Shown in pieces: positions 11,011 through 59,278 of a stretch of 64,000 nt of DNA. This stretch comes from Anaerolineales bacterium (GTDB taxonomy: Bacteria > Chloroflexota > Anaerolineae > JAAEKA01). The stretch's first letter is position 1; every line of letters starts with the position of its first letter. The stretch lies in contig DAOUBX010000124.1 of NCBI GenBank assembly GCA_034432445.1, positions 8,571-72,570 of the forward strand. Direction: 5' to 3'. The notes beneath the pieces were generated by a model. That model had not been told where the DNA came from. It saw only the letters and a list, made by a program, of their open reading frames with translations, and did no database searches. The translations under genes were made by a program, and so were the position numbers.

Positions 11011-13458
11011 ATGCCGGGGAAGCGGATAGCTAGGTGGTTAGGGATCGGCGGCATCGTGCTGCTGATCGTGCTAGCGGCAGTGCTCTTTTTCAGCCAAACT
11101 CAGCGCGGCCAGCCCGCTGCGCCGAGCCAGGCCGCGCCGCTGCCGGTGGTCACGGCGCCGGTGGAGCTGCTGGCCATGCCCGACGCCGGCAGCGCAGCAC
11201 TGCTGCAGGCCATCGACACCGCCGAGAGCAGCATCCGCCTCAAGATCTACCTGATCACCGATGAGGCCGTGGTGGAGGCATTGGGTCGCGCCGTGCAGCG
11301 CGGGGTGAACGTGCGCGTGCTGATCGAGGAGGCGCCCTACGGCGGCGGGGAGACCAACGCGCTGGCGACACAGGCGCTGCAGTCCGCCGGCGTGGACGTG
11401 CGCGGCCGGCCGGGCGTCTTCGTCTACAGTCACGAGAAGAGCCTAGTGGTGGACGACCGCCGCGCCTTCATCATGACGCACAACTTGACCCGCTCTTCCT
11501 TTGAGCGCAACCGAGAGTACGCGGTGATCGTCGACGATCCGGCCGTGGTGACGGAAGTGGCGCGGGTGTTCGACGCCGACTGGGAGCGCATCGAGCCAGA
11601 CCTGAGCGGGGCGCAGCTGGTGTGGAGCCCGGTCAACAGCCGGCCGCGCATCGCCGCCTTGATCGACAGCGCCCGAGTCAGCCTGGACGTGCAGCACACG
11701 TCGCTGCAGGACCCGGAGCTGATCGGCCGGCTGGCCGCCGCAGCCAGGCGCGGCGTCAGCGTGCGCGTGACCACGCCGGCCATCTACGACCCCGCCGAGT
11801 CGGAGTACGGCGCCATCGACGAGCTGTTTGCCGCCGGCGTGGCCATTCGCTTCCTGGACGAGCCCTACGTCCACGCCAAGGCAATGATCGCCGACGGCCG
11901 GCTGGCCATGGTTGGCTCGCAGAACTTGACCACCAACTCGCTGGAGAACAACCGCGAGCTGGGCATTATCTTCGACGACGCGGCCGCGGTGAACCAGTTG
12001 GCCGGTTACTTCCTGCGCGATTGGAACGCCGCCAAGCCGTGGGCCGGCCCGCAGCCCACGGCCACGCTGCCGGCCGGCGACGTCCTGCGCTGGGACCAGG
12101 TCGCCGGCTACGTGGGCCAGACCGTGACCGTCGAAGGCGATGTGATCGACACTTACGACAGCGGCAAGGTCACCTTTCTCAACTTCGACGAGGACCGCAC
12201 CTTCACCGTCGTGATCTTCGCCAGCGCTTACCCGGCCTTTCCTCAGCCGCCGGAGGACCTGTACTATCGCAAGCGGGTGCGGGTCACCGGCCAGATCAAG
12301 CTTTATCAGGACCGGCCGGAGATCATCGTCGAGTCGCCGGAGGCCATCGAAGTGGTGGCGGACCTGCTGGCGACGCGTGGCCAGCCACCGCCTACGCCTC
12401 CGGCCGACGGCGTGATCGACTGGCGCGAGGCCGGCCAGTACATCGGCCAACGGCTGGCCGTCGAGGGCGACGTCGTGCGCGTCTATAACAGCGGCAAGGC
12501 CGCCTTCCTCAACTTCGCGCAGGACTACCGCGGCCAGTTCTCGGTCGTGATCTTCGCCTCCGACTTCGACCGGTGGCCGCAGCCGCCCGAGCAGGTCTAC
12601 CTAGGCCAACGCGTGCGGGTGTCGGGCAAGATCAAGGAGTACCAGGGCGCGCCGGAGATCGTGGTCGAGTCGCCGGAGCAGATCGACATCCTGGGCCCGG
12701 CGGCAACGGCCACGCCGGATGCCGTGGCAGCCGAGCGGTCGGCGCCGGTCGACCTCGCCATCACCGTCCCGCCCACGGCCACCCTGCCCATCTCGTCCAC
12801 CGCAGCCATCACGCCCACCGCCAACCCCACACCCGCCGCCACGGCTACGCCGCTTCCGGTCATCCCCTGGCAGCAGGCCGCGGCCTACGAGGGCCAGGAG
12901 GCCACGGTGGAGGGCGTGGTGGTGGACAGCTACAAGTCCAACTCGGTGATCTTCCTCAACTTCAGCGAAGACCGCAGCGCCTTCAAGGCCGTGATCTTCC
13001 GCCGCGATTGGAGCAAGTGGCCGCAGTCGCCGGAGCTGCTGCTGCGGGGCGCAACGGTGCGCGTCAGCGGGCCGGTGCAGCTCTACCAGGGCGCGCCGGA
13101 GATCATCGTCGACGACCCGGCGCAGATCGAGGTCGTTGCCCCGCCGCCCACGCCCGCCGCGCCGCCGCCCTCGGCGCCCGTCCCCTGGCAAGAGGCGGCC
13201 GCCTACGCAGGTCAACGCGTCACGGTCGAGGGCGTGGTGGTGGACACCTACAAGTCGGACAAGGTGATCTTCCTCAACTTCGGCCCCCGCCGCAGCGACT
13301 TCAAGGTCGTGATCTTCGCCAGCGCCTGGGATCGTTGGCCGCAAACGCCCGATGCGCTCTACGACGGCAAGCGCCTGCACGTCACCGGCCAGGTCAAGCT
13401 CTACAACGGCGCGCCGGAGATCATCGTGGACGAGCCGGGGCAGATCGGTGAGCGGTGA
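11011..13458 (+). CDS. membrane-anchored phospholipase-D-family (2x HKD) protein with four C-terminal tandem OB-fold (BOF/tRNA_anti-like) repeats; putative extracellular nuclease
   Basis: An N-terminal TM helix is followed by two HxKx4D motifs (HEKSLVVD, HAKAMIAD...GSQN). Four ~95-aa repeats W..A.Y.GQ.VTVEG.V...Y.S.K..FLNF...F..VIF...WPQ.P..Y.G..V.V.G.I..YQGAPEI.V..P.QI are separated by PT-rich linkers. Confidence 0.75.
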   Translation: MPGKRIARWLGIGGIVLLIVLAAVLFFSQTQRGQPAAPSQAAPLPVVTAPVELLAMPDAGSAALLQAIDTAESSIRLKIYLITDEAVVEALGRAVQRGVNVRVLIEEAPYGGGETNALATQALQSAGVDVRGRPGVFVYSHEKSLVVDDRRAFIMTHNLTRSSFERNREYAVIVDDPAVVTEVARVFDADWERIEPDLSGAQLVWSPVNSRPRIAALIDSARVSLDVQHTSLQDPELIGRLAAAARRGVSVRVTTPAIYDPAESEYGAIDELFAAGVAIRFLDEPYVHAKAMIADGRLAMVGSQNLTTNSLENNRELGIIFDDAAAVNQLAGYFLRDWNAAKPWAGPQPTATLPAGDVLRWDQVAGYVGQTVTVEGDVIDTYDSGKVTFLNFDEDRTFTVVIFASAYPAFPQPPEDLYYRKRVRVTGQIKLYQDRPEIIVESPEAIEVVADLLATRGQPPPTPPADGVIDWREAGQYIGQRLAVEGDVVRVYNSGKAAFLNFAQDYRGQFSVVIFASDFDRWPQPPEQVYLGQRVRVSGKIKEYQGAPEIVVESPEQIDILGPAATATPDAVAAERSAPVDLAITVPPTATLPISSTAAITPTANPTPAATATPLPVIPWQQAAAYEGQEATVEGVVVDSYKSNSVIFLNFSEDRSAFKAVIFRRDWSKWPQSPELLLRGATVRVSGPVQLYQGAPEIIVDDPAQIEVVAPPPTPAAPPPSAPVPWQEAAAYAGQRVTVEGVVVDTYKSDKVIFLNFGPRRSDFKVVIFASAWDRWPQTPDALYDGKRLHVTGQVKLYNGAPEIIVDEPGQIGER

Positions 13459-15654: not shown

Positions 15655-17004
<1,350 letters not shown>

Positions 17005-17214: not shown

Positions 17215-17628
17215 ATGGCCGTACAACAAGTGACGATTCGTCTGCCCGAAACCCTGTATCATCAGGTCAAAGCACGCGCCCGACGCACGCAGCGCACGAT
17301 CGAAGATGAAGTGGCGGCTGTGGTTGCAGCAGCGTTACCGGAGCTAGGCGACCTTCCGCATCCGAGCTCCGACGAGATGGAGCAGATGGCTTTAATGACC
17401 GATCACGAGTTGTGGCAGGCGGCCCGAGCCACGATGACAGTGACCGAGAGTCGGCGTATGCAAGCGTTCTTGCTCAAGCGTCAAGGAGAAGGACTATCTC
17501 TAGATCAGGAGGCTGAAGCAGAGCAACTTGTGCGGCGCCAGGAGCGACTGGTGCTGATCCGCGCCCGGGCGGCGGCATTGCTGAAGCAGCGCGGGCATGA
17601 TGTGGCAGACCTGATGAAGCTCCAATGA
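17215..17628 (+). CDS. ribbon-helix-helix (CopG-like) protein with helical C-terminal domain paralogous to the 17830 protein
   Basis: The N-terminus VTIRLPETLYHQVKARARRTQRTIEDEV is RHH-like. The C-terminus AFLLKRQGEGLSLDQEAEAEQL...LIRARAAALL aligns with SWLLEANRERQLSPQEEEELDHY...LSLLKAKA of the next gene. Confidence 0.5.
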   Translation: MAVQQVTIRLPETLYHQVKARARRTQRTIEDEVAAVVAAALPELGDLPHPSSDEMEQMALMTDHELWQAARATMTVTESRRMQAFLLKRQGEGLSLDQEAEAEQLVRRQERLVLIRARAAALLKQRGHDVADLMKLQ

Positions 17629-17733
17629 GTCGTGCTGGTCAACGCAAGGCGCTTGTAGATCGAGGCAGGATGGTATCCCGCCGGGGAGGTCGGAGGCGTG
17701 ATCAAGTTCATACCCAAAGCAGGGTGGAGACAG

Positions 17734-17766
17734 TTGACTTGACCAGACAAAGATGAGTGCTATAAT
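17734..17766 (+). promoter_or_regulatory. near-consensus sigma70 promoter (TTGACC-16 nt-TATAAT) in an AT-rich patch
   Basis: ttgacTTGACCagacaaagatgagtgcTATAATgacg lies 60 nt upstream of the 17830 start. Confidence 0.5.
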
Positions 17767-17829
17767 GACGTTAAGCCATACTGGGTTTTACGGACGGCAG
17801 CTGACCTGCGGATAGAACCGGAGCAACAC

Positions 17830-18081
17830 GTGACAACTACAGCATACTCCTTGCCTTTTTATGAGCAAGTGCTGGAATTCCTGGCGTCTGGGCCATCTTC
17901 CCAGGAAATCATGGCCTACAAGCCGCCAAAGGCGGCGCAAGCGCGCTTTAGCTGGTTGCTAGAGGCGAATCGAGAGCGCCAGTTGAGCCCTCAGGAGGAG
18001 GAGGAGCTCGATCACTACATTGCTATGGATCGCATGCTCTCTCTCCTCAAGGCCAAGGCTTCCACACGACTGGAGCAGTAA
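17830..18081 (+). CDS. small helical protein, paralogue of the 17215 C-terminal domain; candidate antitoxin/immunity partner of the HNH nuclease
   Basis: The 83-aa protein is 9 nt upstream of the HNH gene. Confidence 0.45.
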   Translation: MTTTAYSLPFYEQVLEFLASGPSSQEIMAYKPPKAAQARFSWLLEANRERQLSPQEEEELDHYIAMDRMLSLLKAKASTRLEQ

Positions 18082-18089
18082 CCAAACCC

Positions 18090-18521
18090 ATGGCTCAGGT
18101 TTCCGCTCAGCTCCGCAACTTTGTTGCGGCCCGCGCCATGGAAAGCTGCGAATACTGCCTGATACATGCCGCCTACACAGCTTTTGCGCATGAGGTTGAT
18201 CACGTCATTGCACGTAAGCATGGTGGGGCCACTGAGCCAGATAACCTTGCCTTTGCCTGCGCCCAGTGTAATCGCTTCAAAGGGAGCGACATTGCAGCAC
18301 CGGACCCAGTGAGCGGAGACATTGTCACTCTTTACAACCCAAGAACGATGAATTGGGGGGACCACTTTCGCTTGGATGAGCCGCGCATCATTCCTCTTAC
18401 TGCCTCAGGCCGAGCGACGGAACGCTTGCTCCAACTCAACCAGATCGATCGCCTGTTGCTGCGCAAGGAGTTGCTGGTCAAAGGGCGCTATCCGTTCTTT
18501 GCCGCCGGACACGCACACTAG
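18090..18521 (+). CDS. HNH endonuclease
   Basis: CEYC...HEVDHVIARKHGG...NLAFACAQCNRFKG is the HNH motif with its Cys ligands. Confidence 0.8.
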   Translation: MAQVSAQLRNFVAARAMESCEYCLIHAAYTAFAHEVDHVIARKHGGATEPDNLAFACAQCNRFKGSDIAAPDPVSGDIVTLYNPRTMNWGDHFRLDEPRIIPLTASGRATERLLQLNQIDRLLLRKELLVKGRYPFFAAGHAH

Positions 18522-18745
18522 GCATGCGATGACACCGTGGCTCGCCGGATCAGGCAACACATCCTCTGGCTCCGGCGACCGAGCGGCGCAATTGCAGGGC
18601 AAAGCGATTGTGTGCTACAATCAATGTCGGCAGGCGGTGCTCGAGAACACGGACGATACAGGCGCATACCATCGCCGTGGTTGAACTCTCCCCCTGCGCA
18701 CTAGCACAACTTCTGCCGACATCGTCAGGCTTCTGATGCTCTGCG

Positions 18746-19123
18746 TTGCGCGCAATAGGAGAGCTTATGGCTGTCTTGATGCAAGAATTACCAAGGCTGG
18801 GCAAGCTCGAAGTTGACGTCAAAGTGACTGCCGACGTCAACGTCACGGCCTTTTCAGCTCGCCAAAAGGTCGATAGCTTTGTGCTCAGCGAAATTAGCTA
18901 CATGATGCACGCTGGCGATCCAACGCTGGTTTTGGCCGACCACATCCTGTGGCGGGTGCCAGTCGTGTTGTCGCAAACGTCGCGCGGCGATGTCGGTGAA
19001 GTGGGGCACATCGATGTAGACATCGAAACGGGCCAATTGCTGGTTACACCTCAGATCGTTGCGGAGATCGAGACTCGTGCCGCAGCCATTGTTGAACGTT
19101 CCTCATCGCCAACAACAATCTGA
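18746..19123 (+). CDS. hypothetical protein (start uncertain; alternative Met at MAVLMQEL)
   Basis: The ORF overlaps the downstream peptidase gene; no recognisable motif. Confidence 0.35.
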   Translation: MRAIGELMAVLMQELPRLGKLEVDVKVTADVNVTAFSARQKVDSFVLSEISYMMHAGDPTLVLADHILWRVPVVLSQTSRGDVGEVGHIDVDIETGQLLVTPQIVAEIETRAAAIVERSSSPTTI

Positions 19124-19535
19124 CGGCGATTGCTTGGCCGCCTACGCAGCCATGGTGCTCAGCTACTGGGGACGCGAGATTTCTTACAGCTCGCTCTTGC
19201 GGCTGTTGCAGGTGCAACCTTATGGCGCACCCGCAGGCAACATCCGATTGCTGTCTAGTCTCGGTCTACGTGTCACCTATAGTACAACCAACCTGGCAGG
19301 CCTGCAATCGCTCCTCGATCAGGACAGTCCCGTAATCGTTTCCGTACGCACTGGGGAGTTGCCATACTGGGCCTACACGACCGATCATGCTGTCGTTGTA
19401 GTTGGATACGATGAAGGACACGTATACGTCAACGACCCTGACAGGTCCGAGTCTCCGATTATGGTATCAAGGGGTGACTTCGAGCTGGCGTGGCTAGAGC
19501 GCGACTACGCCTTTGCGTTGATCAAGCCGACCTGA
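19059..19535 (+). CDS. papain-like cysteine peptidase, C39-like (Peptidase_C39_2/BtrH-like)
   Basis: [20 protein letters not shown] carries the Gln/Cys active-site motif; [19 protein letters not shown] supplies the His. Confidence 0.6.
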
Positions 19536-19539: not shown

Positions 19540-20775
19540 ATGACTGCACCCATGTCCCACGACATCGAACGCCTCATCCGCCCCGAGCTGGCCACCATGC
19601 AGCCCTACACGCCCATCCACCCCTTCGAGGTGGTGAGCCAGCGGCTGGGCCGGCCGCCGGAGCAGATCGTCAAGCTGGACGCCAACGAGAACCCCTACGG
19701 CCCCTCCCCGCGCGCCGTGGCGGCCATGGCCGGCTACCCCTGGCTGCACATCTACCCCGACCCGCAGAGCACGGAGCTGCGCGCCGCGCTGGCCGACTAC
19801 ACCGGCGTCCCGGCCGAGCGCATCCTGGCCGGCAGCGGGGCGGACGAGCTGATCGACCTGCTGGGCCGGCTGCTCTTGGCCCCCGGCGACGCCCTGATCG
19901 ACTGCCCGCCCACCTTCGGCATGTACGCCTTCTGCGCGGCGGTCAACGGCGCCTGTCGCATCGACGTGCCGCGGCGGGCCGATTTCTCCGTCGACGTGGA
20001 CGCCATCGAGCGCATCATGGACGCCGAATCGGACGGCGGCTACGACGAGTGGGCGTGGCTGGACAACGTGCAGGTCGATTGTGGGGAGGGGGCTCACTAC
20101 GTCTCCTCCGAGGATGGCTATTCGACCCGCGGACAGCATGGTTTTCCCCGGCCCAAGCTGCTCTTCCTCTGCTCTCCCAACAACCCGGACGGCGGGCTGC
20201 TGGCGCCGGCCGATCTCGAGCGCCTGCTGCGCCTGCCGCTGGTGGTCGTGGTAGACGAGGCCTACATCGAGTTCGCCCGGCCGGGTGCGTCCTTTGTCCC
20301 CTGGACGGCCGAGCACGACAACTTGGTGATCCTGCGCACCTTCAGCAAGTGGGCGGGGCTGGGCGGGCTGCGCGTGGGCTATGGCGTGTTTCCCCCGGCC
20401 ATCATCGAGCAGCTTTGGAAGATCAAGCAACCCTACAACGTCAACGTGGCCGGCAGCCGCGCCGCTATCGCCTCGCTGGCCGACCGCAATTACCTCCTGG
20501 GCAACGTGGCCAAGCTAGTAGCCGAGCGGGAGCGGCTCTACGCCGAGCTGGCCCGCTTCGACTTCCTCCAGCCTGTGCCCGGCAGCCAGAGCAACTTCAT
20601 CCTCTGCCGCGTCGTCGGCCGCGACGCCCGCCAGCTCAAGCTCGACCTGGAACAGCAGGGCGTGCTGGTGCGTCACTTCGCCAAGCCCGGCGTGGACAAC
20701 TGTGTCCGCATCAGCGTGGGCCGGCCGGAACAAACTGATGTGCTGCTAGAGGCGTTAGCCAGAGTTGGCCTGTAA
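19540..20775 (+). CDS. hisC: histidinol-phosphate aminotransferase (with an ~50-aa insertion)
   Basis: …[12 protein letters not shown]…[12 protein letters not shown]…[18 protein letters not shown]… contains the PLP-lysine motif. Confidence 0.9.
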
Positions 20776-20822: not shown

Positions 20823-20984
20823 CTAACAGATCTTTCTGGCGAGCTTGTCGGGTATCTTGCTGTGGCGCGGCACCGCTTCGATTTGGCCGGTCAGGGGATT
20901 GACCCACAGCGAGTGCGACCGTCCCTCCCGCTTCAGGTAACACCCATGCCTGCGCAAGTGGCGCAACAGCTCGTGGAGTTTCAT
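20823..20984 (-). CDS. hicA: HicA-family mRNA interferase toxin (53 aa; not in ORF track)
   Basis: The reverse translation reads MKLHELLRHLRRHGCYLKREGRSHSLWVNPLTGQIEAVPRHSKIPDKLARKIC. Its start overlaps the hicB stop (ATGA). Confidence 0.75.
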   Translation of the reverse strand: MKLHELLRHLRRHGCYLKREGRSHSLWVNPLTGQIEAVPRHSKIPDKLARKIC

Positions 20985-21196
20985 CCGACGGTGACCGTAG
21001 CCCGGATGGCTTCGTTCGGGACGCCGCGCAGGCCGTCTTCCCGGCGGTCGGACAAGATCAGGTCAACTGCGTCAGCCAGGCTCTGCAGACACTCTTCGTA
21101 GGTGCGCCCAAGGCCGTTGGCGCCGGAGATCTCCAGACAATAGGCGACGTACCACGGTCCATCCCGTTCGACAATGGCAGTGAACTCATTTTTCAT
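20981..21196 (-). CDS. hicB: HicB-family antitoxin (UPF0150)
   Basis: MKNEFTAIVERDGPWYVAYCLEISGANGLGRTYEECLQSLADAV matches the HicB N-terminal fold. Confidence 0.75.
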   Translation of the reverse strand: MKNEFTAIVERDGPWYVAYCLEISGANGLGRTYEECLQSLADAVDLILSDRREDGLRGVPNEAIRATVTVG

Positions 21197-21298
21197 GGTC
21201 TTTGTTCCTTAGCAAGAAACTAGTCAAGCGCTGCTAGTGCGATTATACTTGAGTTCAGCAGTCGGGCAAAGGCAGGCCAAAGCACAGGACGACCGAGA

Positions 21299-21889
21299 AT
21301 GATCACACGGCAGGCAACCATCTCCCGCACCACCAAAGAAACCTCCATCGAGCTCAGTCTGGCCATCGACGGCAACGGCCAGGCCGACGTGCACACCGGC
21401 ATCGGCTTCTACGATCACATGCTGACGCTGTTCGCCGGCCACGGGTTGTTCGACCTGCGCGTGGCGGCCAGCGGCGATTTGCACGTGGACGAGCACCACA
21501 CGGCCGAGGACGTGGCCATCTGCCTGGGCCAGGCGCTGGACCGGGCGCTGGGCGACCGCGCCGGCATTGTGCGCACGGCCCACAGCTACGTGCCCATGGA
21601 CGAGGCGCTGGGCTTCGTCGCCGTGGACCTGGGCGGCCGGCCCTACTGCGTCTTCGACGCCGACTGGCGCACGCCGCGGCTCGGCGGGCTGGGCACCGAC
21701 CTCATCGGCCACATCTTCGAGACGCTGGCCGTGCATGGCCGGCTCAACCTGCACGCGCGCGTGCTCTACGCCCGCAACGACCACCACGCCTGCGAGGCGC
21801 TCTTCAAGGCGCTAGGCCGCGCCCTGGACGCGGCCACGCAGATCGATCCCCGTCGTCACGGGGTGCCATCCACGAAAGGCACGCTCTGA
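21299..21889 (+). CDS. hisB: imidazoleglycerol-phosphate dehydratase (monofunctional)
   Basis: …[14 protein letters not shown]…[15 protein letters not shown]…[11 protein letters not shown]…. Confidence 0.9.
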
Positions 21890-22512
21890 TGGTCCCAACA
21901 TTGCCGCCGTCCCCTTCGTCCCCTCCCTCACCGACCGGCGGCGCAGCCCCAATCTACAGCGGTCAATGGCTGGCCTGGCCCGATGTCCGTGACTACCGCG
22001 CCGCGCAACTGGGCGACATCCTGGCCGAGCGGCTGGTGTGGTCCGCAACAGCCGGCCTGTTACACCGCGGCGGTGTGACCATCGCCGGCCCGGCCTACAT
22101 CTGGTTTCGCTTTTGGCTGCCGCGTGACAGCCAGGTGGTGGAAAAATACTTCGACGCCCAAGGACAGACGCTGGGCATGCAAATCGACGTGTGCATGCCG
22201 TTGGCAGCTCTCCCCGTCCACCTGCGCACCGGCCCGTTTGCCGCCGCCAAAGAGCCGCTGGCCGGCTGGTTTACCACCAACTTGCTCCTAGACATCTGGA
22301 TCACCGCCGATGGCCAGGTGACTGTGCGCAACGAGGCCGCGTTTGAGCAGGCGGTGCGCGCGGGCGCGCTGAGCGAGGCAGAGGCGGCTTGGGCCGAGGA
22401 GCGGGTGCGCACGCTGACCTCGGCCATCGCCCGGCGTCGCTTTCCGCCGGCGCTGGTGCGCAACTGGCAGGTCGACTTGCGCAGAATTCAGGAGACCCTA
22501 TCACCCTCATGA
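21889..22512 (+). CDS. DUF402-like (FomD/Ntdp-fold) protein, translationally coupled to hisB and hisH
   Basis: ATGA-type overlaps at both ends (21887-21891 and 22509-22512). The pattern YIWFRFW...YFDAQG...MQIDVCMP...NLLLDIWITADGQVTVRNEAAFEQAVRAGALSEAEAAWA resembles the DUF402 core, but the acidic DLDLD/DEDE positions are only partly conserved. Confidence 0.4.
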   Translation: MVPTLPPSPSSPPSPTGGAAPIYSGQWLAWPDVRDYRAAQLGDILAERLVWSATAGLLHRGGVTIAGPAYIWFRFWLPRDSQVVEKYFDAQGQTLGMQIDVCMPLAALPVHLRTGPFAAAKEPLAGWFTTNLLLDIWITADGQVTVRNEAAFEQAVRAGALSEAEAAWAEERVRTLTSAIARRRFPPALVRNWQVDLRRIQETLSPS

Positions 22513-23159
22513 TCGCAATCATCGACTACGGCATCGGCAACTTGCGCAGCGTGGAAAAGGCCTTCGTGCACGTCGGCGCCGACGCGCGGCTGACGGCCGA
22601 TCCCGCCGCGATCCGCTCTGCCGCCGGCGTCGTTCTGCCGGGGGTGGGCGCGTTTGGCGCCTGCGCGTTGGGCTTGCGCCGCGCCGAGTACGACGCCCTG
22701 GTGCTGGAATTGGCGGCCGCCGGCCGGCCGCTGCTCGGCATCTGCGTGGGCATGCAGCTTCTCTTCGAGGAGAGCGAGGAGATGGGCCGGCATGCGGGTC
22801 TGGGCTTGTTGCCCGGCCGCGTGCTACGCTTTCCGGAGGGACAGGTAGACTCAGCCGGTGCGCGCCTCAAGGTGCCGCAGATCGGCTGGAACCAGCTTTG
22901 GCACGACGAGAGCGACCCCTTGCTGGCCGGTGTGCCCAGCGGCAGCTACGCTTACTTCGTCCACTCCTACTACTGCGCGCCGGCGAACCCGGCCGATGTG
23001 GTTGCCACGACGGACTACGGCTTCCCCTACGCCTCCGTAGTCCATCGAGACAACCTGTGGGGCGTGCAGTTCCACCCCGAGAAAAGCCACACCGTAGGGT
23101 TGAGGATCCTGCGCAACTTTGTGGACGCGGTAATCGCTGATCGATTTGCCGACAGCTAA
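22509..23159 (+). CDS. hisH: imidazole glycerol phosphate synthase, glutamine amidotransferase subunit
   Basis: MIAIIDYGIGNLRSV…GICVGMQLLFE…VQFHPEKS carries the Cys-His-Glu triad motifs. Confidence 0.9.
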   Translation: MIAIIDYGIGNLRSVEKAFVHVGADARLTADPAAIRSAAGVVLPGVGAFGACALGLRRAEYDALVLELAAAGRPLLGICVGMQLLFEESEEMGRHAGLGLLPGRVLRFPEGQVDSAGARLKVPQIGWNQLWHDESDPLLAGVPSGSYAYFVHSYYCAPANPADVVATTDYGFPYASVVHRDNLWGVQFHPEKSHTVGLRILRNFVDAVIADRFADS

Positions 23160-23203
23160 TCTTGCGGTTATACTCCCCCAGGTAGGCACGGATTCCGCGC
23201 GAG

Positions 23204-26995: not shown

Positions 26996-29900
26996 ATGAC
27001 ACCATCGCCTGTTGACGCACGCCATTCCAGCCGCTGGCTGGTCACGTTGCTGCTGCTGTTCATCCTGCTGGCCGGCTTTGCCCTGCGCGTGTTCCACGTG
27101 GACTACGCCGACGGCCAGTTGCCCCATCCCGACGAACGGTCGACCGTCGCCTTCTACGCGCCGACCATCCGCTGGCCGGCCGAGGGCATCAGCCCGCTGG
27201 ACAAGCGCCAATCGCCGTTGAACCCGTTGTGGAGCGTGGAACGACAGGAGCGGCGCAGCTACACCTACGGTCACTTTCCGCTCTATCTGCTCGTCCTCAC
27301 CGCCAACGCGGCGCACGAGCTGGCGCCGGTCGCCGAACGGCTGGGCGCCTCGCCGGAGCTGGTGCAAAGGCTGCGCACGGCCAACGGGGTGCCGGGCTTC
27401 GCCGTGGTCGGCCGGGTGATCATGGCCGTGGCCGACACGGCCACCGTGCTGCTGATCTTCTTGCTGGCCGACCGCATCTACGGCCGACGGCGTGGGCGCT
27501 GGTGGCCCGGCCTGCTGGCCGCTGCCTTCTCGGCCTTCACCGTGCTGCAAATCCAGCTCAGCCACTTTTTCGCCGTCGACCCGATCAGCACGACGTTTAC
27601 GGTGTTGGCGCTGTACGGCGCGCTGCGCATGGTGGAGGCGGGGCGGGGGAGCGGAAAGGAAGGAAAAGAAGGAAAGAAGGGAAACGGAGGGAAAGAGGGA
27701 AAGGAGGGCACTGGCGGGCGCGGCGGGGCTGGCGCGGCTTGGGCGGTGGTGTGCGGGATTGGCGCGGGGTTGGCGATTGCCTCCAAGTTCAGCGCGCTGC
27801 CGATCTTGGCGGCGCCGGTGGTGGCCGGCTTTCTGATCTGGTGGCGCGCACGCCGGGCCGAGCCGGAGGTCGACGAGGAGCGCGCCGGCCTGGGCGCAGC
27901 GCTGCTGTGGCCGCTGCTGGCGCTGGGCGTGGCCGTGCTCACGTTTGTCGTCACCTCGCCCTTTGCCATCCTCGATTGGGCGAATTTCCGCCAGGCTGTG
28001 TTGGTGGAACAGGGCGCGATGGTGCAGGGCAAGGCCGACTTCCCCTTTACGCGGCAGTATCGCGGCACGCTGCCCTACCTATATTTCATCGAGCAGCAAA
28101 TCCGCTGGGGCATCGGCTGGCCGCTGGGCATCCTGGCCTTTGCGGGCCTGGCCTGGGCACTGCTCAAGCTCCTCATCGGTCGCGGCGAGGACGGCGAGAT
28201 CGTCATCCTGAGCTGGATCGTGCCCTACTTCGGCCTGACCGGCCTCTTCCTGGCCAAGTTCATGCGCTACATGGTCCCGGTGACGCCGCTGCTGATGGTT
28301 TTTGCTGCCGGCCTGGTGGCGGCGATTTGGTATGGCGAGGTGTTGGGAAGGCGGGAGCGGAGGCAAAGGAAGGAAACGCGGGAAAGTAGGGAAACGAAGG
28401 AAACCAGGGAAATGAGGGAAAGCGGGGAAAGGGAAGGAATGAAGGGGGCGGAAGAGGGAGAGCTGGCGCTGCTCACGGTGGACGACAGCGCGCCGTCGTC
28501 GGCGAGTGTGCCGGAGCCAGAAGCGCTGTCCCCGGCCGGCGAGCCGGAACCCACCTCACCCCCTGCCGACTACCAACCACCGCTCACCGCTGACCGTTCA
28601 CCGGCCACCGTTCACCGTTCACCGGCCACCGTTCACCGTTCACCGGTCACCGGTCACCGATCACCGGTCACCGTTCACCGTTCACCGGCCACCCTCCGCC
28701 GCGCCCTCGCCTTCGCCATCGCCGCCATCGCCCTGCTCGGCGCGCTCTTCTGGTCCCTGGCCTACGTCAACGGCGTCTACAACAACACGCATCCCTGGAT
28801 CAAGGCCAGCCGCTGGATCTACGCCAACGTGCCCGACGGCTCGACCATTGCCTGGGAGCAGTGGGACGACTCGCTGCCCTACGATCTGCCGGAGCCGAAC
28901 TCCAACCGCGGTCGCTATCGCTTCATCGACTGGGGCCCCTTCGAGGAGGACCGCGCCGAGAAGTTCGAGTGGCTCAAGAGCACGTTGCGCACCGCCGACT
29001 ACCTCGTGCTGTCCTCCAACCGCATCTACGGCGCCGTGGACAACCTACCGGAGCGCTATCCGCTCACCAACCGCTACTACGAGCTGCTCTTCGACGGTCA
29101 ACTGGGCTACGAGCTGGCGCTGAAGGAGGAGAACCGGCCCAATCTCTTCGGCATCGTGGTCGACGACGAGCACGCCGACGAGAGCTTCACCCTCTACGAC
29201 CATCCCACGGTACACGTCTTCCGCAAGGTGCGCGACCTGAGCGACGCCGAGTGGGACGCGCTGCTGGGCGGCAGTTGGGAGGGCGCCCAAGCGTGGTACG
29301 TGGGTGAGCCGCTGCTGATCAGCCGCATCTTCGCCTTGTTCGGCGACGAACAGGGACAGCCCGCCCCGCGCGAGCCCGGCCCCGGCGAGGGACGCAGCCT
29401 GCTGCTGGATCGGCCGCTGGACGAGCTGCCGGTGGTGCAGGATTTCCGCTGGAACGGCCTCGCCAGCCGGTCTCCCCTGCTCGCAGCCCTGGGCTGGTGG
29501 CTGGCCATCAGCGTAATCGGCCTGGCGGCGTGGCCGATCAGCTTTGCCCTGTTCACCAACCTGCGCGACCGAGGGTTTCTGCTCGCGCGCAGCCTGGGCT
29601 GGCTGATCATGGGCTGGGTGGTGTGGATGGCCGCCAGCCTGCGCATCGGCCGCAACGCCTTGCCGTTCATCGTGGCCGCGCTGCTCGGCATGGCAGCCGT
29701 GTCCATCCTCCTCTGGCGACGCAACCGCGACGAGATGGGCGCCTTCGTGCGGGTGCACAAGCGCATTTTGCTGTTCGGCGAGGCGCTGTTCGCCCTCGCC
29801 TACGCTTTCTTCGTTCTGATCCGCCTCTTCAACCCCGACATCTGGCAGCCCTGGAACGGCGGCGAGAAGTTCATGGAGTTCGCCTTCCTCAACGCCATCC

Positions 29901-32257
29901 TGCGCAGCGCCTACATGCCGCCCATCGACCCTTACTTCGCCGGCGGCACCATCAACTACTACTACTACGGCCACTACCTGGTCAACCTGCTGGTCAAGCT
30001 CACCGGCATCTGGTCGTCCGTGGCCTTCAACCTGGCCATCCCCACCGTGTTCGCGCTGACGGTAGCCAACGTGTTCAGCCTGGGCTATAACCTCGCCGGC
30101 CGGATGAAGCGGGCGCCGGGTGGCGCCGAACGGCCCCACGCCGGCCCTGGGCCAGAGGCGGCGCCGGCTGCCCCCCTCCAGGCCGGCGCCAGCTCGGCTC
30201 GGTTAGAAGAGCCGGACTTACCCCGCAGCGCAGAAATCACCGACGACCAACCACCGATCACCGATCACCGATCACCGTTCACCGATCCGGGGTCACCGTT
30301 CACCGATCCGGGGTCACCGATCACCGATCACCGTTCACCGTTCACCGACCACCGCCTGCTGCGCCCGCGCTGGCTGTGGCACGGGGTGAGCGGCGCGCTG
30401 TTGGCAGTGTTCTTCGTGGCGCTGCTGGGCAACGTGGACGGCGGCGGGCAGGTCCTGCGCAGCCTGGCGCAGCAGTCCCCCAGCAGCTTCAGCAGCAACC
30501 TGCCCGGCGTGCAGACGGCGGTGCGCGCGCTCAGCGGCTTCTGGCATGTGGCGACCACAGCGGCCACCCTGCCCGGCTACCGCTATTGGGACCCCAGCCG
30601 CGTGATCCCCTATACGATCAACGAGTTCCCCTACTGGAGCTTCCTCTTCGCCGACCTGCATCCGCACATGATCGCCATCCCGTTCACGGTGCTCTTCCTG
30701 GCCCTGGCTTACAACTTGCTGGCCGGCTATGGGCAGGGGACGGCGTTGCCGGCGAGCCGTGCTTCCCGGCGGCAGCAGGTCAGCTATTGGCTGCGCAGGC
30801 TGACGGGCAATGGGCTGTACGTAGCGATGGCTCTCAACCTGGGCGCGCTGGCCGTGATCAACACCTGGGACCTGCCCACCTATTTCGGCCTGGCCGTGTT
30901 GGCCTGGCTGGTGCGCGAGTGGCGGTCAGGGCAGTTCAGCGCCGCGCCTGGCCGCGCCCTGCTGCGCACCTTGCTCTTCGCCGGCGGCCTGGGCGTCCTG
31001 TCCATTGCCCTCTACCTGCCCTTCTTCCAGCACTACCAGCCCCTGGCCAGCAGCGGCGTCGGCATCGTCAAAACCAAGACCGAGCTGGGCCTCTGGCTGA
31101 ACATGTGGGGCTTCCTCTTCTTCGCTGCGCTCACGTTCGTTCTGGTTGAGCTGCGCCGCCGACCGCCCAGCCGGTGGCCCGAGGATCCGGCCATCGTGCG
31201 TTGGCTGCGCTTAGCACTGGATCACTTCGCCCGGCTCGGCCGAGCCTTGGCTTTGAGCAAGGCCGGCAGTGTCCGCTTAGGATCAGTGGCCACGACAGCG
31301 CTGCTTCTGCTGGCGGTCGGGCTGCTGGCAACGGCGGCGCTGTGGCTCCTGGGCTTCAAGGTGCCGGCGTTGCTGGTGTTGCCGTTGGCCGCGGCCGGTC
31401 TGCTGCTCTTGCGGCGCAGCGCCACCCCCGAAAACCTGTTCATCGCCATCCTGACCTTCACCGGTCTGCTGGTGCTGCTCGGCGTGGAGTTCGTGTACCT
31501 CAAGGACCACCTGCAGGGCGGCGACTGGCGGCGCATGAATACCCTGTTCAAGTTCTACATCCAGGTGTGGGTCATGCTGGCGCTGGCCGGCGGGGTAGCC
31601 TTGCCGCGCATCTGGGACTTCGTCCAGGGACGCTGGCGGCGCGGCTGGCGCATCGCCTGGTCCGTGGCGTTCGGCTGGCTGCTGCTGCTTTCCCTGGCCT
31701 TTCCGCTCTTTGGCACGCCGGCGCGGCTGGACGACCGCTTCCCGCCGGAAAACGGCCGGCCCCCCATCAGCACGCTGGACGGCATGGCCTACATGGAGCC
31801 GGGCACGTACACCTGGCACCCTGACCCGCAACAAGCGCCCAACACGCGCATCGAGCTGCGCCATGACTACGACGCCCTGCGCTGGCTGCTCGACAACGTG
31901 GAAGGTGCGCCGGTCGTGGCCGAGGCCGTGATCGGCTACTACCGCGAGGGCGGCCTGCGTGTGGCCAGCTTCACCGGCTTTCCCACCTTGCTCGGCTTTC
32001 ACCAGGAGGGGGAGCAGCGCTACGGCTGGCAAACCGGGCCACGCCGCGGCCGGGCCGAGGAGTTTTGGACCACCGTCGATCCGCAACGCGCCCAACAGCT
32101 CATCAACGAGCTGGACATCGACTACATCTACGTCGGCCAGCTCGAGCGCATCGTCTACTCGCCTGAAGCCCTGGCTAAGTTCGACCAGCTCGTGCAACAG
32201 GGCGTGCTGGAGATCGTCTACCGCAACGACGGCGTGGTCATCTATCGCGTGCTGTAG
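26996..32257 (+). CDS. giant polytopic membrane protein, Chlor_Arch_YYY (TIGR03662/DUF2298) two-copy class with PMT/GT-C-like N-terminal region
   Basis: There are dozens of TM helices. The first YYY motif is SYTYGHFPLYLL and the second is INYYYYGHYLVNLL, next to EKFMEFAFLNAILRS. Low-complexity insertions are present (KEGKEG..., RESRETKETRE..., HRSPVTV... repeats). Confidence 0.8.
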   Translation: MTPSPVDARHSSRWLVTLLLLFILLAGFALRVFHVDYADGQLPHPDERSTVAFYAPTIRWPAEGISPLDKRQSPLNPLWSVERQERRSYTYGHFPLYLLVLTANAAHELAPVAERLGASPELVQRLRTANGVPGFAVVGRVIMAVADTATVLLIFLLADRIYGRRRGRWWPGLLAAAFSAFTVLQIQLSHFFAVDPISTTFTVLALYGALRMVEAGRGSGKEGKEGKKGNGGKEGKEGTGGRGGAGAAWAVVCGIGAGLAIASKFSALPILAAPVVAGFLIWWRARRAEPEVDEERAGLGAALLWPLLALGVAVLTFVVTSPFAILDWANFRQAVLVEQGAMVQGKADFPFTRQYRGTLPYLYFIEQQIRWGIGWPLGILAFAGLAWALLKLLIGRGEDGEIVILSWIVPYFGLTGLFLAKFMRYMVPVTPLLMVFAAGLVAAIWYGEVLGRRERRQRKETRESRETKETREMRESGEREGMKGAEEGELALLTVDDSAPSSASVPEPEALSPAGEPEPTSPPADYQPPLTADRSPATVHRSPATVHRSPVTGHRSPVTVHRSPATLRRALAFAIAAIALLGALFWSLAYVNGVYNNTHPWIKASRWIYANVPDGSTIAWEQWDDSLPYDLPEPNSNRGRYRFIDWGPFEEDRAEKFEWLKSTLRTADYLVLSSNRIYGAVDNLPERYPLTNRYYELLFDGQLGYELALKEENRPNLFGIVVDDEHADESFTLYDHPTVHVFRKVRDLSDAEWDALLGGSWEGAQAWYVGEPLLISRIFALFGDEQGQPAPREPGPGEGRSLLLDRPLDELPVVQDFRWNGLASRSPLLAALGWWLAISVIGLAAWPISFALFTNLRDRGFLLARSLGWLIMGWVVWMAASLRIGRNALPFIVAALLGMAAVSILLWRRNRDEMGAFVRVHKRILLFGEALFALAYAFFVLIRLFNPDIWQPWNGGEKFMEFAFLNAILRSAYMPPIDPYFAGGTINYYYYGHYLVNLLVKLTGIWSSVAFNLAIPTVFALTVANVFSLGYNLAGRMKRAPGGAERPHAGPGPEAAPAAPLQAGASSARLEEPDLPRSAEITDDQPPITDHRSPFTDPGSPFTDPGSPITDHRSPFTDHRLLRPRWLWHGVSGALLAVFFVALLGNVDGGGQVLRSLAQQSPSSFSSNLPGVQTAVRALSGFWHVATTAATLPGYRYWDPSRVIPYTINEFPYWSFLFADLHPHMIAIPFTVLFLALAYNLLAGYGQGTALPASRASRRQQVSYWLRRLTGNGLYVAMALNLGALAVINTWDLPTYFGLAVLAWLVREWRSGQFSAAPGRALLRTLLFAGGLGVLSIALYLPFFQHYQPLASSGVGIVKTKTELGLWLNMWGFLFFAALTFVLVELRRRPPSRWPEDPAIVRWLRLALDHFARLGRALALSKAGSVRLGSVATTALLLLAVGLLATAALWLLGFKVPALLVLPLAAAGLLLLRRSATPENLFIAILTFTGLLVLLGVEFVYLKDHLQGGDWRRMNTLFKFYIQVWVMLALAGGVALPRIWDFVQGRWRRGWRIAWSVAFGWLLLLSLAFPLFGTPARLDDRFPPENGRPPISTLDGMAYMEPGTYTWHPDPQQAPNTRIELRHDYDALRWLLDNVEGAPVVAEAVIGYYREGGLRVASFTGFPTLLGFHQEGEQRYGWQTGPRRGRAEEFWTTVDPQRAQQLINELDIDYIYVGQLERIVYSPEALAKFDQLVQQGVLEIVYRNDGVVIYRVL
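28581..28700 (+). repeat. in-frame tandem heptamer repeats (CACCGTT/CACCGGT/CACCGAT) encoding (H/D)RSP(A/V)T(V/G) units inside the YYY gene
   Basis: caccgttcaccggccaccgttcaccgttcaccggtcaccggtcaccgatcaccggtcaccgttcaccgttcaccggccacc. Confidence 0.85.
30251..30352 (+). repeat. second in-frame heptamer-repeat block (CACCGAT/CACCGTT with a GATCCGGGGTCACCGTT variant) inside the same gene
   Basis: It encodes PPITDHRSPFTDPGSPFTDPGSPITDHRSPFTDHR. Confidence 0.85.
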
Positions 32258-53027: not shown

Positions 53028-55328
53028 CTATTCCTCCAGCAATTGCAACCATTCTCCGCCCAGATCGGCCCAGCGCGCGCCGTAGAAGATGTGATCTTGC
53101 CCGCTAGGCGCACGATAGACAAGATCGACGGTCGTGTACGAGCGGCGCAGTGATCCCAGATTGCCCACCCATGTTACGGCGTTGTCGTCGAGCGGCCGGT
53201 CGTGATCGATGTGCATGCGCAGGGCATAATGGCGGAGGCTGCCCTCCTTGAGCATATCGGGGGACCACAGCCGGCTTTCCACATGTTGATTGCCGAGGTT
53301 GTGGAACTTGAACAGCGGATCGGCGCCGTTTTCGCGCACTTCGACCACTTCTAGCCCGGAGCGTGGCAGCTCCACGCGCAGCAGGCTGGCCCAATCGTCG
53401 GGTAAGCTCTCGCAGGGTACGCTGCGGTAGAAGAGGTCTTTGCCATAGCGATTGCGAAAGACCAGGTCGCAGTGCAGCCCGTTGCTGGTCATGTATACCG
53501 CTTCCACACCCATGTTGCCGCGCCACCGGATGCGTCGGTTGGACGGCAAGGTCTCCACCGTGGCGCCTGGAGGGGGGGCGCACTCAAAGAGCGGGTCCCA
53601 CGCGGCGCTGACCCAGCTGACAGCCACAGCAAAGAACACATGGGAGATCTTGCCCGCTTCGTCGCGGAAAAGCAAATCACATTTAACGCGGCCGCGCTGG
53701 TCGTAAACCTCGTTGGTGCGGTAGATGCGCCACAGGCCCATTCGGCCATGCCACCGCGCCAGATGGTTGAGATCATCCATGCGCTGGCGGATCGCCAAGT
53801 AGTTCTTGATCGCGTACAGCCACACGCTGGTGGCGGTCTGTTCCGATGCCTGGCTCTCGCGGTTGGTGCGCAGGTCGATCACGCGGAAGTACTCTGTGTC
53901 GCCGCGCAAGGTCTGGCCGACGATTTCCACGCCCGACTTAGGCTGTTCGATGCCGGGCGCCAACAACCGCACCTGGCCATCGGTGGGCATAGACCGGCTG
54001 GCATACTCGTCATCGGCGTGCAGCATGTCGATGATATCAGCATGAGTGGCCAGCACCGTTTTGCCGCCGCGGCGCACATAGATCGACTTAACCCCGTCTT
54101 GCACCAGAAAACAGGGCTTGCGCTGCATTTCCTGCACTTCGATCTGCACGACGTCTTGCCCCTCATACTTGAGGATGTCTACTGACCACTCCGGCTGAGG
54201 AAAGACGCTCTCGCTGATGGCTGTTTGGAAGGCGCGCATGTCGCTCGACGCATCGGCGACTCCTTGCACCGGCACGTCAGGATCAGGGTCCAGCCCCAGA
54301 TAGATGATGCCGCCGCCGCTGTTGGCTAAAGCTACCACGTGCTGGCAGGTTTCGGTCAGGTTATCGATGCAATTCGGGCAGAGGACGTGGTGATCGGAAG
54401 GGCCAGCCGTGCGTGCATCGGTAATGCGGTTGAACTGTGTCACATCGGAGACGTAGGGCACGCGCACGCGGTGGAAGTCGTTGCTGCGCAGCAGGTCGCG
54501 CAGCGCCTCGAAGGTGGGCTCTGGCAGCAGCATCTCCGTTGGACGGTCGCCAATGCCCCAGCGCCGCATCTGGGCGCCGGGGTCTTGCACCAGGCGATGG
54601 GCGTCGGAGCTTTGGATGCAATGCATGCGCCGCTCATAGCCCAGGTTAGTGCCGTCATACCAGCGCGGGCTGGCGAACCCCTGCAGGTGGGTGCTGTGAA
54701 AACCAGCGAACTCCAAGGCATCCAGATAGGGGCTTTGAGTAGCGCCTACGCGCGCAGCGCCGGTGGGCAGGTTGTTGGCAAATGCCAGCACGCCCGTGGG
54801 CGCGTTAATATGTGCGGCAATGGCAATGCCGCCGGCGTCATGAATGATTTTGTAGGATTCGAGATGGGCGCGCGTGCCGGGCAGCGAGGTCGTGCCCAGG
54901 TGCATCTTGTCGTAAGGTACGCCGAGCTCGTTGAGCACTGCTTTGATGTGCGAGATGCAGTCGGGCATCTTGGGCGAAAACAGGCCCAACACGTGAGAGC
55001 CAAAACTGGTGGTCAGCTCAAAGCCTGGCAGCAAAGTAATCTTGGCAAGAAGTCTTCTGTATTCGTTGAGCTCGGCTTGCTCTTGTTCGTTCAGCCGTCC
55101 ACGTGCTTCCAGACGCTCCAAGAATTCGATCTCGTCGAAAATCGCCTCGTAGCCGGCGATGGTGTTGTGATCCGTCAATGCTATGATGTCTAACCCGCGT
55201 CGCTCTGCCTCTCGAAGAATGTCCAGGTAAGTCACATCTTTGTCTACGTAATCTTCAGAGGCAGGCGTATGGATATGCAAGTCAACCCGACACCACCGCA
55301 TCGCCTGCTGTTCTGCCTCTTTTTCCAT
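53028..55328 (-). CDS. 766-aa multidomain protein: N-terminal PHP phosphoesterase domain (TrpH/YciV-like) + AlbA_2/Schlafen-core-like putative DNA-binding domain + three C-terminal ~80-aa repeats (WxGxxG…DLxFR)
   Basis: PHP motifs VDLHIHTP, ALTDHNT, GFELTT, AAHINAP and SSDAHRL are present. The AlbA_2 core is HVVALANSGGGIIYLGLDPD…IYVRRGGKT. The repeats are WHGRMG…CDLLFRDEAG, WRGNMG…CDLVFRNRYG and WVGNLG…VDLVYRAPSG. Confidence 0.7.
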   Translation of the reverse strand: MEKEAEQQAMRWCRVDLHIHTPASEDYVDKDVTYLDILREAERRGLDIIALTDHNTIAGYEAIFDEIEFLERLEARGRLNEQEQAELNEYRRLLAKITLLPGFELTTSFGSHVLGLFSPKMPDCISHIKAVLNELGVPYDKMHLGTTSLPGTRAHLESYKIIHDAGGIAIAAHINAPTGVLAFANNLPTGAARVGATQSPYLDALEFAGFHSTHLQGFASPRWYDGTNLGYERRMHCIQSSDAHRLVQDPGAQMRRWGIGDRPTEMLLPEPTFEALRDLLRSNDFHRVRVPYVSDVTQFNRITDARTAGPSDHHVLCPNCIDNLTETCQHVVALANSGGGIIYLGLDPDPDVPVQGVADASSDMRAFQTAISESVFPQPEWSVDILKYEGQDVVQIEVQEMQRKPCFLVQDGVKSIYVRRGGKTVLATHADIIDMLHADDEYASRSMPTDGQVRLLAPGIEQPKSGVEIVGQTLRGDTEYFRVIDLRTNRESQASEQTATSVWLYAIKNYLAIRQRMDDLNHLARWHGRMGLWRIYRTNEVYDQRGRVKCDLLFRDEAGKISHVFFAVAVSWVSAAWDPLFECAPPPGATVETLPSNRRIRWRGNMGVEAVYMTSNGLHCDLVFRNRYGKDLFYRSVPCESLPDDWASLLRVELPRSGLEVVEVRENGADPLFKFHNLGNQHVESRLWSPDMLKEGSLRHYALRMHIDHDRPLDDNAVTWVGNLGSLRRSYTTVDLVYRAPSGQDHIFYGARWADLGGEWLQLLEE

Positions 55329-57481: not shown

Positions 57482-57482
57482 G

Positions 57483-58434: not shown

Positions 58435-58453
58435 TGCCCTCCTTCTCACCAAT

Positions 58454-59212: not shown

Positions 59213-59278
59213 GCGAGCTAGGATAGCTGATTTGTCCCCCGATGTCAAAGCTGTTCCTCCCCTCATGGCTCTTGTGGT

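Follow-up and report, generated by a model that had tools for sequence, protein, structure and literature searches.

X402 is the working name given here to the 207-residue product of an open reading frame (ORF) with an ATG start at 21889-22512 of a 64-kb stretch of DNA from an Anaerolineales bacterium (contig DAOUBX010000124.1; "the window" denotes this whole stretch). The protein is a genuine, catalytically eroded variant of a known fold, that of the DUF402 proteins, and its gene is linked to histidine (his) operons. The likeliest role of X402 is that of an accessory protein that binds a ligand, or else of a non-canonical enzyme. A preliminary description of the window had put it forward as a candidate for the missing histidinol-phosphate phosphatase (HolPase) of the pathway, or alternatively as an inactive or regulatory homologue. 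Our analysis links X402 to histidine synthesis, and the evidence leans slightly against its being the HolPase.

The HolPase step is notorious for its replacement by unrelated families. It is also the commonest unfilled gap in amino acid biosynthesis, missing in 42 of 208 prototrophs, or 20% (GapMind 2026), so a candidate is worth testing.

X402 Is Embedded in a Histidine Gene Cluster

The gene lies between hisB and hisH. The cluster, with all genes on the forward strand, is as follows:

15655..17004, +, hisD, histidinol dehydrogenase (orthologous to a gene of the related locus L001 annotated PF00815, Histidinol_dh)
19540..20775, +, hisC, histidinol-phosphate aminotransferase (TIGR01141, 315 bits)
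21299..21889, +, hisB, imidazoleglycerol-phosphate dehydratase, monofunctional, 196 aa (Pfam/NCBIfam)
21889..22512, +, X402, divergent DUF402-fold protein, 207 aa (ORF list and sequence check)
22509..23159, +, hisH, glutaminase subunit of imidazole glycerol phosphate (IGP) synthase (TIGR01855, 222 bits)

The hisC product makes the substrate of the HolPase step, and the hisD product uses the product of that step. The hisB product is monofunctional, as first described: it matches Pfam IGPD over aa 33-176 and NCBIfam NF002116 with 313 bits (cut-off 269), and Pfam and NCBIfam searches found no HAD domain in it.

X402 overlaps both of its neighbours. The hisB/X402 junction is TGATG, with a 1-nt overlap at 21889 (hisB stop 21887-21889, X402 start 21889-21891), and the X402/hisH junction is ATGA, with a 4-nt overlap at 22509-22512 (hisH start 22509-22511, X402 stop 22510-22512). 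The translational coupling of X402 inside the cluster, proposed earlier, is borne out by these overlaps with the hisB stop and the hisH start. The accompanying detail of an ATGA at both ends is right for hisH and wrong for hisB.

The ORF exists as described, and codon composition, substitution rates, homologues and a structural model all mark it as a real gene. The GC contents of its first, second and third codon positions are 0.67/0.55/0.79, the last being of coding type. The ratio of nonsynonymous to synonymous substitution rates (dN/dS) is 0.25-0.49 against four orthologues; between the same two genomes the values for hisB and hisH are 0.10-0.12. X402 is therefore under purifying selection, yet it evolves 2-3 times faster than the flanking his genes.

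The Link to hisH Is Kept in Two Operon Layouts

Relatives of X402 were found in 102 loci in one-genome-per-species data. The 80 of these loci that were listed all belong to the Chloroflexota, mostly to the Caldilineales/Caldilineaceae. When 1.84 billion representative proteins were searched exhaustively with a profile, only 12 clusters came up at E<=1e-30, and below that level the scores grade into ordinary DUF402 proteins. Neighbouring genes were annotated by BLAST with the his proteins of the window and of locus L006, and further metagenomic contigs were checked separately. The gene directly downstream of X402 is hisH in 77 of 87 loci, with the 4-nt ATGA overlap in 49; hisH is the sole constant neighbour of X402 across the loci.

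The loci fall into three groups, A, B and C, each monophyletic in a neighbour-joining tree, and in that tree the clades linked to hisH fall to either side of the family root. Group A (the window, L001, L007-L011, P0007 and P0015) has the order hisC-hisB-X402-hisH, followed downstream of hisH by an FFLEELY/DUF8198 gene and then an M24 peptidase gene. Group B, comprising about 65 Caldilineaceae species, has the order CN-hydrolase-X402-hisH-[slot]-hisA::NUDIX-hisF-hisI-hisE. The slot between hisH and hisA holds a gene of the metallo-beta-lactamase (MBL) fold, or a His_Phos_1 gene together with a Na/H exchanger gene, or nothing. In the nine loci of group C his genes are not nearby, and X402 stands alone, beside an MBL gene or fused to one. 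Since adjacency to hisH is kept in two different operon layouts, the link to the histidine genes is real. By genomic definition, X402 is a conserved component of the his operon.

X402 has two further companions in group B. The HisA protein carries a C-terminal NUDIX hydrolase domain (PF00977 8.6e-75, PF00293 1.8e-9; L006:12146-13522), an unusual HisA architecture that recurs in about 50 other Caldilineaceae loci (e.g., L030:13629-14957), with hisE in the same operon. Directly upstream of X402-hisH lies the CN-hydrolase gene (L006:9151-9966 and about 60 group B loci), which encodes a nitrilase-superfamily amidase of 271 aa. It often abuts or overlaps X402, and it is a second possible ammonia-producing enzyme in an operon with the HisH glutaminase. 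In the window itself, tblastn with MBL, CN-hydrolase, HisA::NUDIX, HisF, HisI, HisE and IMPase proteins found nothing.

X402 Has the DUF402 Fold

Searched alone, the X402 sequence gave no Pfam match at E<=1 and no phmmer match to the PDB at E<=10. It gave a weak NCBIfam match to FomD (E=0.0046, aa 131-183, 16.6 bits against a model cut-off of 320). A search of 5.8 billion proteins found 22 homologous protein clusters, of which 17 match PF04167 (DUF402), the best at 5e-9; P0001, which is the exact window protein, has a precomputed PF04167 match. A profile of the family with intermediates matched five solved DUF402 proteins in the PDB at 2.8e-15 to 1.7e-9, among them SC4828 (2.8e-15), FAU-1 (1.4e-14), Ntdp (3.9e-10) and FomD (9.4e-10).

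The AlphaFold2 model of X402 has a mean pLDDT (predicted local distance difference test) of 89.1 and a pTM (predicted template modelling score) of 0.85. It has the N-terminal antiparallel β-barrel followed by C-terminal helices that typify the fold. The resemblance to DUF402 suggested in the preliminary description was checked with Foldseek and is unambiguous: the nine best PDB matches are all DUF402 structures (SC4828, 2p12, FomD, RNase W/FAU-1, Ntdp). The fold search gave DUF402 only, and neither Pfam nor NCBIfam matches X402 to HAD, PHP or Inositol_P. X402 is a lineage-specific, divergent member of the DUF402 fold. The literature that was searched nowhere links DUF402 to histidine and does not describe the X402 variant.

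Two segments set the window protein apart from most of its family:

21889..21948, +, aa 1-20, N-terminal Pro/Ser-rich tail, predicted disordered in the AlphaFold2 model (pLDDT 35-59)
22210..22254, +, aa 108-122, 15-aa insertion seen in the alignment, in the loop between the D100 and N131 strands

The tail is shared, in the alignment, only with P0002-P0006, the closest relatives. The columns of the insertion are gaps in 81 of 83 sequences of the genomic set, the insertion being present there only in the window and L001; it also occurs in the closest metagenomic relatives, P0002-P0006.

The Catalytic Residues Have Decayed in a Mosaic Pattern

Two DUF402 enzymes provide the reference for the active site. 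In RNase W, N404, D420 and D424, universal in DUF402 structures, hold metal 1, and D424, D437 and a third Asp hold metal 2; the substitution D424K abolishes activity, and T378 and Y391 hold a phosphate of the bound ligand (PMC11602121). Bph is Mn-dependent and acts on nucleoside di- and triphosphates (NDPs and NTPs); it also cleaves ppGpp and does not cleave AMP, and its W70A, Y85A, N87A and D105A variants are each inactive (PMC6753144). We aligned 83 X402 family members, then 68 of them with the 115 nearest ordinary DUF402 proteins, here called canonical, and residues were mapped to the literature sites through hidden Markov model (HMM) alignments. The numbering is that of the window protein. 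The segments concerned are as follows:

22186..22188, +, Asp100, in the place of N404 of RNase W, a metal-1 ligand, and of N87 of Bph
22279..22293, +, N131-L-L-L-D135, counterpart of the canonical D-x-x-L-D metal-ligand strand (D420, D424 of RNase W)
22330..22335, +, N148-E149 at the start of helix 1, replacing the canonical D-E of the D-E-D-E metal-2 motif

The window protein has Q98, D100, N131, D135, N148, E149, A150 and A151, which compare with the canonical proteins and with the family as follows:

Position 98: Tyr in 86/115 canonical proteins; Gln in the window protein and Gln, His, Lys or Cys in its clade
Position 100: Asp (68) or Asn (26) in 94/115 canonical proteins; Pro in 55, Asp in 14, Arg in 9 and His in 5 of the 83 family members
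Position 131: Asp in 107/115 canonical proteins; Asp in 57, Glu in 7 and Asn in 6 of the 83
Position 135: Asp in 107/115 canonical proteins; Ala in 46, Gly in 19 (Ala or Gly in 65/83) and Asp in 12 of the 83
Position 148: Asp in 105/115 canonical proteins and in 0/83 family members (Arg in 36, Asn in 30, His in 11)
Position 149: Glu in 61/115 canonical proteins and in 83/83 family members
Position 150: Asp in 73/115 canonical proteins; Ala in the window protein
Position 151: Glu in 101/115 canonical proteins; Ala in the window protein and in 17/19 sequences of its clade

The replacement of canonical acidic positions noticed earlier is therefore real and extends to the family, with Ala or Gly for D135 in 65 of the 83 members and D148 in none, so that every member has lost the second metal site. 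In the window protein the acidic metal-2 motif of helix 1 (D148, D150, E151) is replaced by N148, A150 and A151, and the equivalent of the substrate-binding Tyr of Bph (Y85) is Q98.

Different residues have been lost in different branches. Groups A and C keep D100 (18/19), D131 (18/19) and D135 (15/19), and have lost Y98, D148, D150 and E151. Group B keeps Y98, D131 and E150/E151, and has lost D/N100, D135 and D148. Even among close relatives of identical synteny D135 is replaced, by Arg in L001/P0005, Asn in L010, L011 and P0008, Ala in P0006 and Glu in P0003. The decay of catalytic residues in the X402 family is a mosaic.

A separate set of residues is invariant in the family: E47, R48, R74, Y87, E149, E170, R174, T177, P186, P187, R191 and N192. 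These X402 invariants are not conserved in ordinary DUF402 proteins. R74 lies within a 2-aa insertion and aligns with T378 of RNase W, and Y87 aligns with Y391. Group B lacks the metal site and yet retains the gene, the family invariants and the coupling to hisH, so the function shared by the family cannot depend on that site.

A Proposed Accessory Role Beside HisH

Our tentative first choice is that X402 is an accessory or ligand-binding protein of the histidine pathway working with HisH and/or a partner phosphoesterase. It draws on gene order and residue patterns and, at somewhat under even confidence, ranks ahead of the alternatives, which are, in descending order, that X402 is the HolPase, another nucleotide-directed hydrolase or a passenger gene. 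The proposal is as follows. A DUF402-fold protein would have been recruited into Chloroflexota his operons as the fixed, translationally coupled upstream partner of hisH. Its conserved function would no longer depend on the two-metal chemistry by which Ntdp, Bph, FomD and SC4828 act as nucleotide phosphohydrolases. What was once the substrate cleft may have become an Arg-rich pocket that includes R74 and Y87, with R48 and E149 assumed to lie in the cleft as well. This pocket would bind a phosphorylated metabolite of the pathway, probably ribonucleotide-like or histidinol-phosphate-like. X402 would then act as a ligand-presenting or regulatory subunit with HisH/IGP synthase and/or with a separate phosphoesterase, and would not itself be the HolPase. 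The "inactive or regulatory homologue" first offered as an alternative fits the data at least as well as a HolPase does.

Partner phosphoesterases are at hand in part of the family. X402 is fused to an MBL-fold domain in P0026 (466 aa) and in L080:9980-11380, and in L003:166-1640 it stands directly before a gene for the same MBL-fold protein; his genes are not nearby in these cases. The X402 domain of the L080 fusion is degenerate (P100/S131/S135/G148), and by its residues X402 in such a fusion appears to behave like an accessory domain of a hydrolase. Other fusions among the longer DUF402 matches (GrpB-DUF402, Hint/RTX, STAND/pentapeptide) include none related to histidine. Within group B, the hisH-hisA slot holds a PhnP-like MBL gene in 14 loci (e.g., L006:11225-12091), a His_Phos_1 gene in 32 (e.g., L041:11281-11970) and both in 4, so that another phosphoesterase is present in the operon in 42 of 65 loci. 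The nearest PDB relatives of the His_Phos_1 product are Atu0299 and the phosphoserine phosphatase of Hydrogenobacter (H. thermophilus); its N-terminal motif is 'AH', not 'RHG'. No other phosphoesterase gene was found within about 10 kb in group A. Two unrelated phosphoesterases alternating in one slot suggest in-place displacement, as expected of the phosphatase step itself, and the MBL and His_Phos_1 genes are rival candidates for the HolPase.

Several observations weigh against the accessory role. The nine loci of group C have X402 without hisH, so the link to HisH is not obligatory. The retention of D100, D131 and D135 in 18, 18 and 15 of the 19 sequences of groups A and C looks as though a metal site, and with it catalysis, were under selection. 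RNase W, whose DUF402 domain is without the canonical second metal, is still an enzyme (PMC11602121). In the window's clade, where the metal-1 triad D100/N131/D135 survives, residual single-metal hydrolysis may persist.

X402 as a Possible HolPase

That X402 is itself the missing HolPase, at least in the hisC-hisB-X402-hisH clade, is the next reading in order, and we consider it unlikely. It would be a new, DUF402-fold HolPase, single-metal or Arg-assisted, acting alone or as the substrate-binding subunit of an MBL enzyme, and it seems to us improbable in this wider form as well. The putative mechanism is single-metal, with D100, N/D131 and D135 plus E149, retargeted from nucleotides to histidinol phosphate.

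In favour of this reading, the cluster has the flanking steps (hisB, hisC, hisD), and no phosphatase gene of the HAD, PHP (HisK/J) or IMPase (HisN) type was found in the 64-kb window; the preliminary description had said this of HisN/HisJ types in the operon. The only PHP match in the window is weak (E=1e-4, below the cut-off) and lies at the N-terminus of a 766-aa protein encoded at 53031-55328(-). That protein also has a Schlafen AlbA_2 domain and is unlike a HisK/HisJ phosphatase. Within ±10 kb of 91 related loci no canonical HolPase was found, save CysQ-like IMPases in the non-his group; tblastn of 92 sequences with Roseiflexus HisN (supplement of PMC5516325) likewise found only CysQ-like genes in the non-his group. 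A large-database search with HisN returned only the class Chloroflexia among its best 120 matches and is uninformative for the Caldilineales.

The position and residues of X402 can be read in the same direction. X402 adjoins a monofunctional hisB and overlaps its stop codon; in bifunctional HisB this is the place of the fused HAD domain. Members of the clade retain the D-D-D triad to 79-95%, and the loss of the nucleotide-stacking Tyr98, together with metal 2, suggests a new substrate. The distribution of phosphoesterases is complementary: the clade with the intact triad has no other, and the degenerate clade has MBL or His_Phos_1 in 42 of 65 loci.

However, the chemistry of the family runs the other way. 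Known DUF402 enzymes cleave NDPs and NTPs or a CMP-phosphonate, that is, bonds of the phosphoanhydride type, and leave the monoester AMP untouched (PMC6753144, PMC11602121). Residues that mutagenesis has marked as indispensable in these enzymes are not conserved in the X402 family. Other residues replace the bridging D135, the loss of which inactivates RNase W, in 4 of the 19 clade members of the same synteny and in 65 of 83 overall, and the Caldilineaceae clade keeps the gene, its hisH coupling and the invariants despite the loss of D/N100, D135 and D148. The fixed neighbour is hisH, which acts at step 5, and not hisC or hisD; the evolutionary rate of X402 is 2-3 times that of the his enzymes on either side; and sister operons hold the more conventional phosphoesterase genes, MBL and His_Phos_1. 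X402 falls in none of the known HolPase families (HAD, PHP, IMPase). What stands of the original candidacy is the his-cluster coupling, the monofunctional hisB and the lack of a HolPase nearby; nothing in it is specific to the phosphatase step, and the constant partner is hisH.

Two Less Likely Readings: A Nucleotide-Directed Hydrolase or a Passenger Gene

Somewhat less probable again is that the substrate hydrolyzed by X402 is not histidinol phosphate but a nucleotide-like compound belonging to the early steps of the pathway or to its IGP-synthase part. Possible substrates would be phosphoribosyl-ATP (PR-ATP), a side product of PRFAR (phosphoribulosylformimino-AICAR-phosphate), or the di/triphosphate of AICAR (5-aminoimidazole-4-carboxamide ribonucleotide), in a clean-up or salvage role with an MBL partner. 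The known chemistry of the family, phosphoanhydride cleavage leaving a nucleoside monophosphate, with ppGpp also cleaved by Bph, is as expected (PMC6753144, PMC11602121). In most genomes X402 shares its operon with hisH, hisA, hisF, hisI and hisE, whose substrates are phosphoribosyl nucleotides; it is fused or adjacent to a PhnP-like MBL phosphodiesterase; and HisA::NUDIX in the same operons hints that additional nucleotide hydrolases accompany the pathway. The PR-ATP pyrophosphatase step is, moreover, the second most frequent annotation gap (GapMind 2026). Yet hisE (PRA-PH) is present in the same operons, so there is no pyrophosphatase gap there. The erosion of catalytic residues applies to this hydrolase as it does to a HolPase, and the nucleotide-stacking Tyr98 is lost in the window's clade.

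Two narrower proposals were rejected. X402 does not stand in for HisE, the PR-ATP pyrophosphatase, since the same operons also carry hisE, and an RNase W-like nuclease activity is not the conserved function because most members lack the equivalent of D424.

Lowest in the order, and doubtful in our view, is that X402 is a passenger that has stood beside hisH since an ancestral insertion, kept by operon inertia and with no role in histidine synthesis. Actinobacterial his operons also hold ORFs that are not needed for histidine synthesis. The his cluster of the window evidently tolerates insertions, with toxin-antitoxin (TA)-like and HNH genes in it and different TA genes at the same places in L001, and nine members of the family are not beside any his gene. 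But the TA insertions vary between close relatives and X402 does not. X402 has stayed adjacent to hisH even where identity has fallen to about 40% and the remainder of the operon is completely rearranged, the junction is usually a 4-nt overlap that enforces co-translation, and the two sides of the family root in the neighbour-joining tree both carry hisH-linked clades.

Other Features of the Window

Two promoter-like sequences flank the genes around X402, each a consensus match only:

21221-21249, +, sigma-70-like match before hisB, 9/12 positions
23146-23174, second sigma-70-like match, after hisH and before the next gene

They would fit a hisB-X402-hisH transcription unit, which is possible. 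Rfam and tRNA scans of the 64-kb window found nothing, so the window contains neither a his leader nor a T-box.

Mobile or TA-like genes break up the his cluster at 17215-19535 and 20981-21196(-). An RHH (ribbon-helix-helix) antitoxin-like gene (17215-17628) and an HNH endonuclease gene (18090-18521) lie between hisD and hisC, and a small unannotated ORF (20981-21196(-)) lies between hisC and hisB. The L001 counterpart of the latter position has an unannotated ORF adjoining a HicA-toxin gene. At the same intergenic positions L001 (4581-7492, 8900-9306) has different modules, PhdYeFM/PIN and PemK. The hisC product has 411 aa and matches TIGR01141 in two stretches, which points to an insertion of ~45 residues at aa ~150-200 relative to ordinary histidinol-phosphate aminotransferases.

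Upstream of hisD is a gene for an 815-aa protein with two PLD-like domains and OB folds (11011-13458 (+); L001:408-2870). A membrane protein of 1753 aa is encoded at 26996-32257 (+); its L001 counterpart has DUF2298, and the window protein contains runs of short peptide repeats (HRSPATV..., SPFTD...) and Lys/Gly/Glu-rich stretches. An adjacent trio of genes at 56291-59266 (-) resembles the lactate-racemase cofactor pathway. One is larC (Ni_insertion, 4e-131), and the others are larE-like (NAD_synthase family, weak) and larB-like (AIRC).

Implications

A gene reproducibly wired into his operons that have no known phosphatase is a concrete HolPase lead that is cheap to test. Should X402 prove to be the HolPase, it would be a fourth structural solution to step 8 of histidine biosynthesis. 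If it is not a phosphatase, it is an example of an enzyme fold with mosaic catalytic decay that is under selection and locked to hisH, and the pattern would point to an undescribed accessory or regulatory component of IGP synthase, or of the histidine pathway, in a whole order. Since the family is confined to the Chloroflexota, mostly the Caldilineales, it cannot explain the HolPase gap in other phyla. Together with the MBL, His_Phos_1 and HisA::NUDIX genes, X402 makes up a small, testable set for closing the gap in the Chloroflexota.

Comparison with Known Systems

The stand-alone DUF402 nucleoside di/triphosphatases are Ntdp (S. aureus SA1684) and Bph (E. faecalis OG1RF_10435). The Ntdp motifs D-Y-D-L-D and D-E-D-E correspond to N-L-L-L-D and N-E-A-A in X402 (FAU-1 has DLEVD), and the essential Y85 and N87 of Bph to Q98 and D100, with the Asn position mostly Pro across the X402 family. 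Ntdp and Bph need Mn2+ and act on NDPs and NTPs, not on monoesters (PMC6753144). Unlike X402, they are not encoded in his operons.

RNase W/FAU-1 of archaea carries DUF402 as the C-terminal domain of a 470-aa multidomain RNase that cleaves RNA (PMC11602121). Its D424 is essential, whereas the equivalent position 135 is dispensable in the X402 family, and the region aligned with X402 does not include its terminal-phosphate residues H326 and K328. RNase W/FAU-1 has no link to amino acid biosynthesis.

At the sequence level, the best relatives of X402 with solved structures are FomD, the cytidylyl-2-hydroxypropylphosphonate hydrolase, and SC4828, a Streptomyces phosphatase. Each retains all of the acidic two-metal site and binds a nucleoside diphosphate, in contrast to the eroded site of X402. 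FomD also shows that a DUF402 enzyme can be part of a biosynthetic gene cluster.

The known HolPases, which are of the HAD (HisB-N, PA0335), PHP (HisK/HisJ) and IMPase (HisN) types, have folds unrelated to that of X402. What X402 shares with them is genomic logic only: a small gene of a hydrolase fold in a his cluster whose hisB lacks a phosphatase domain.

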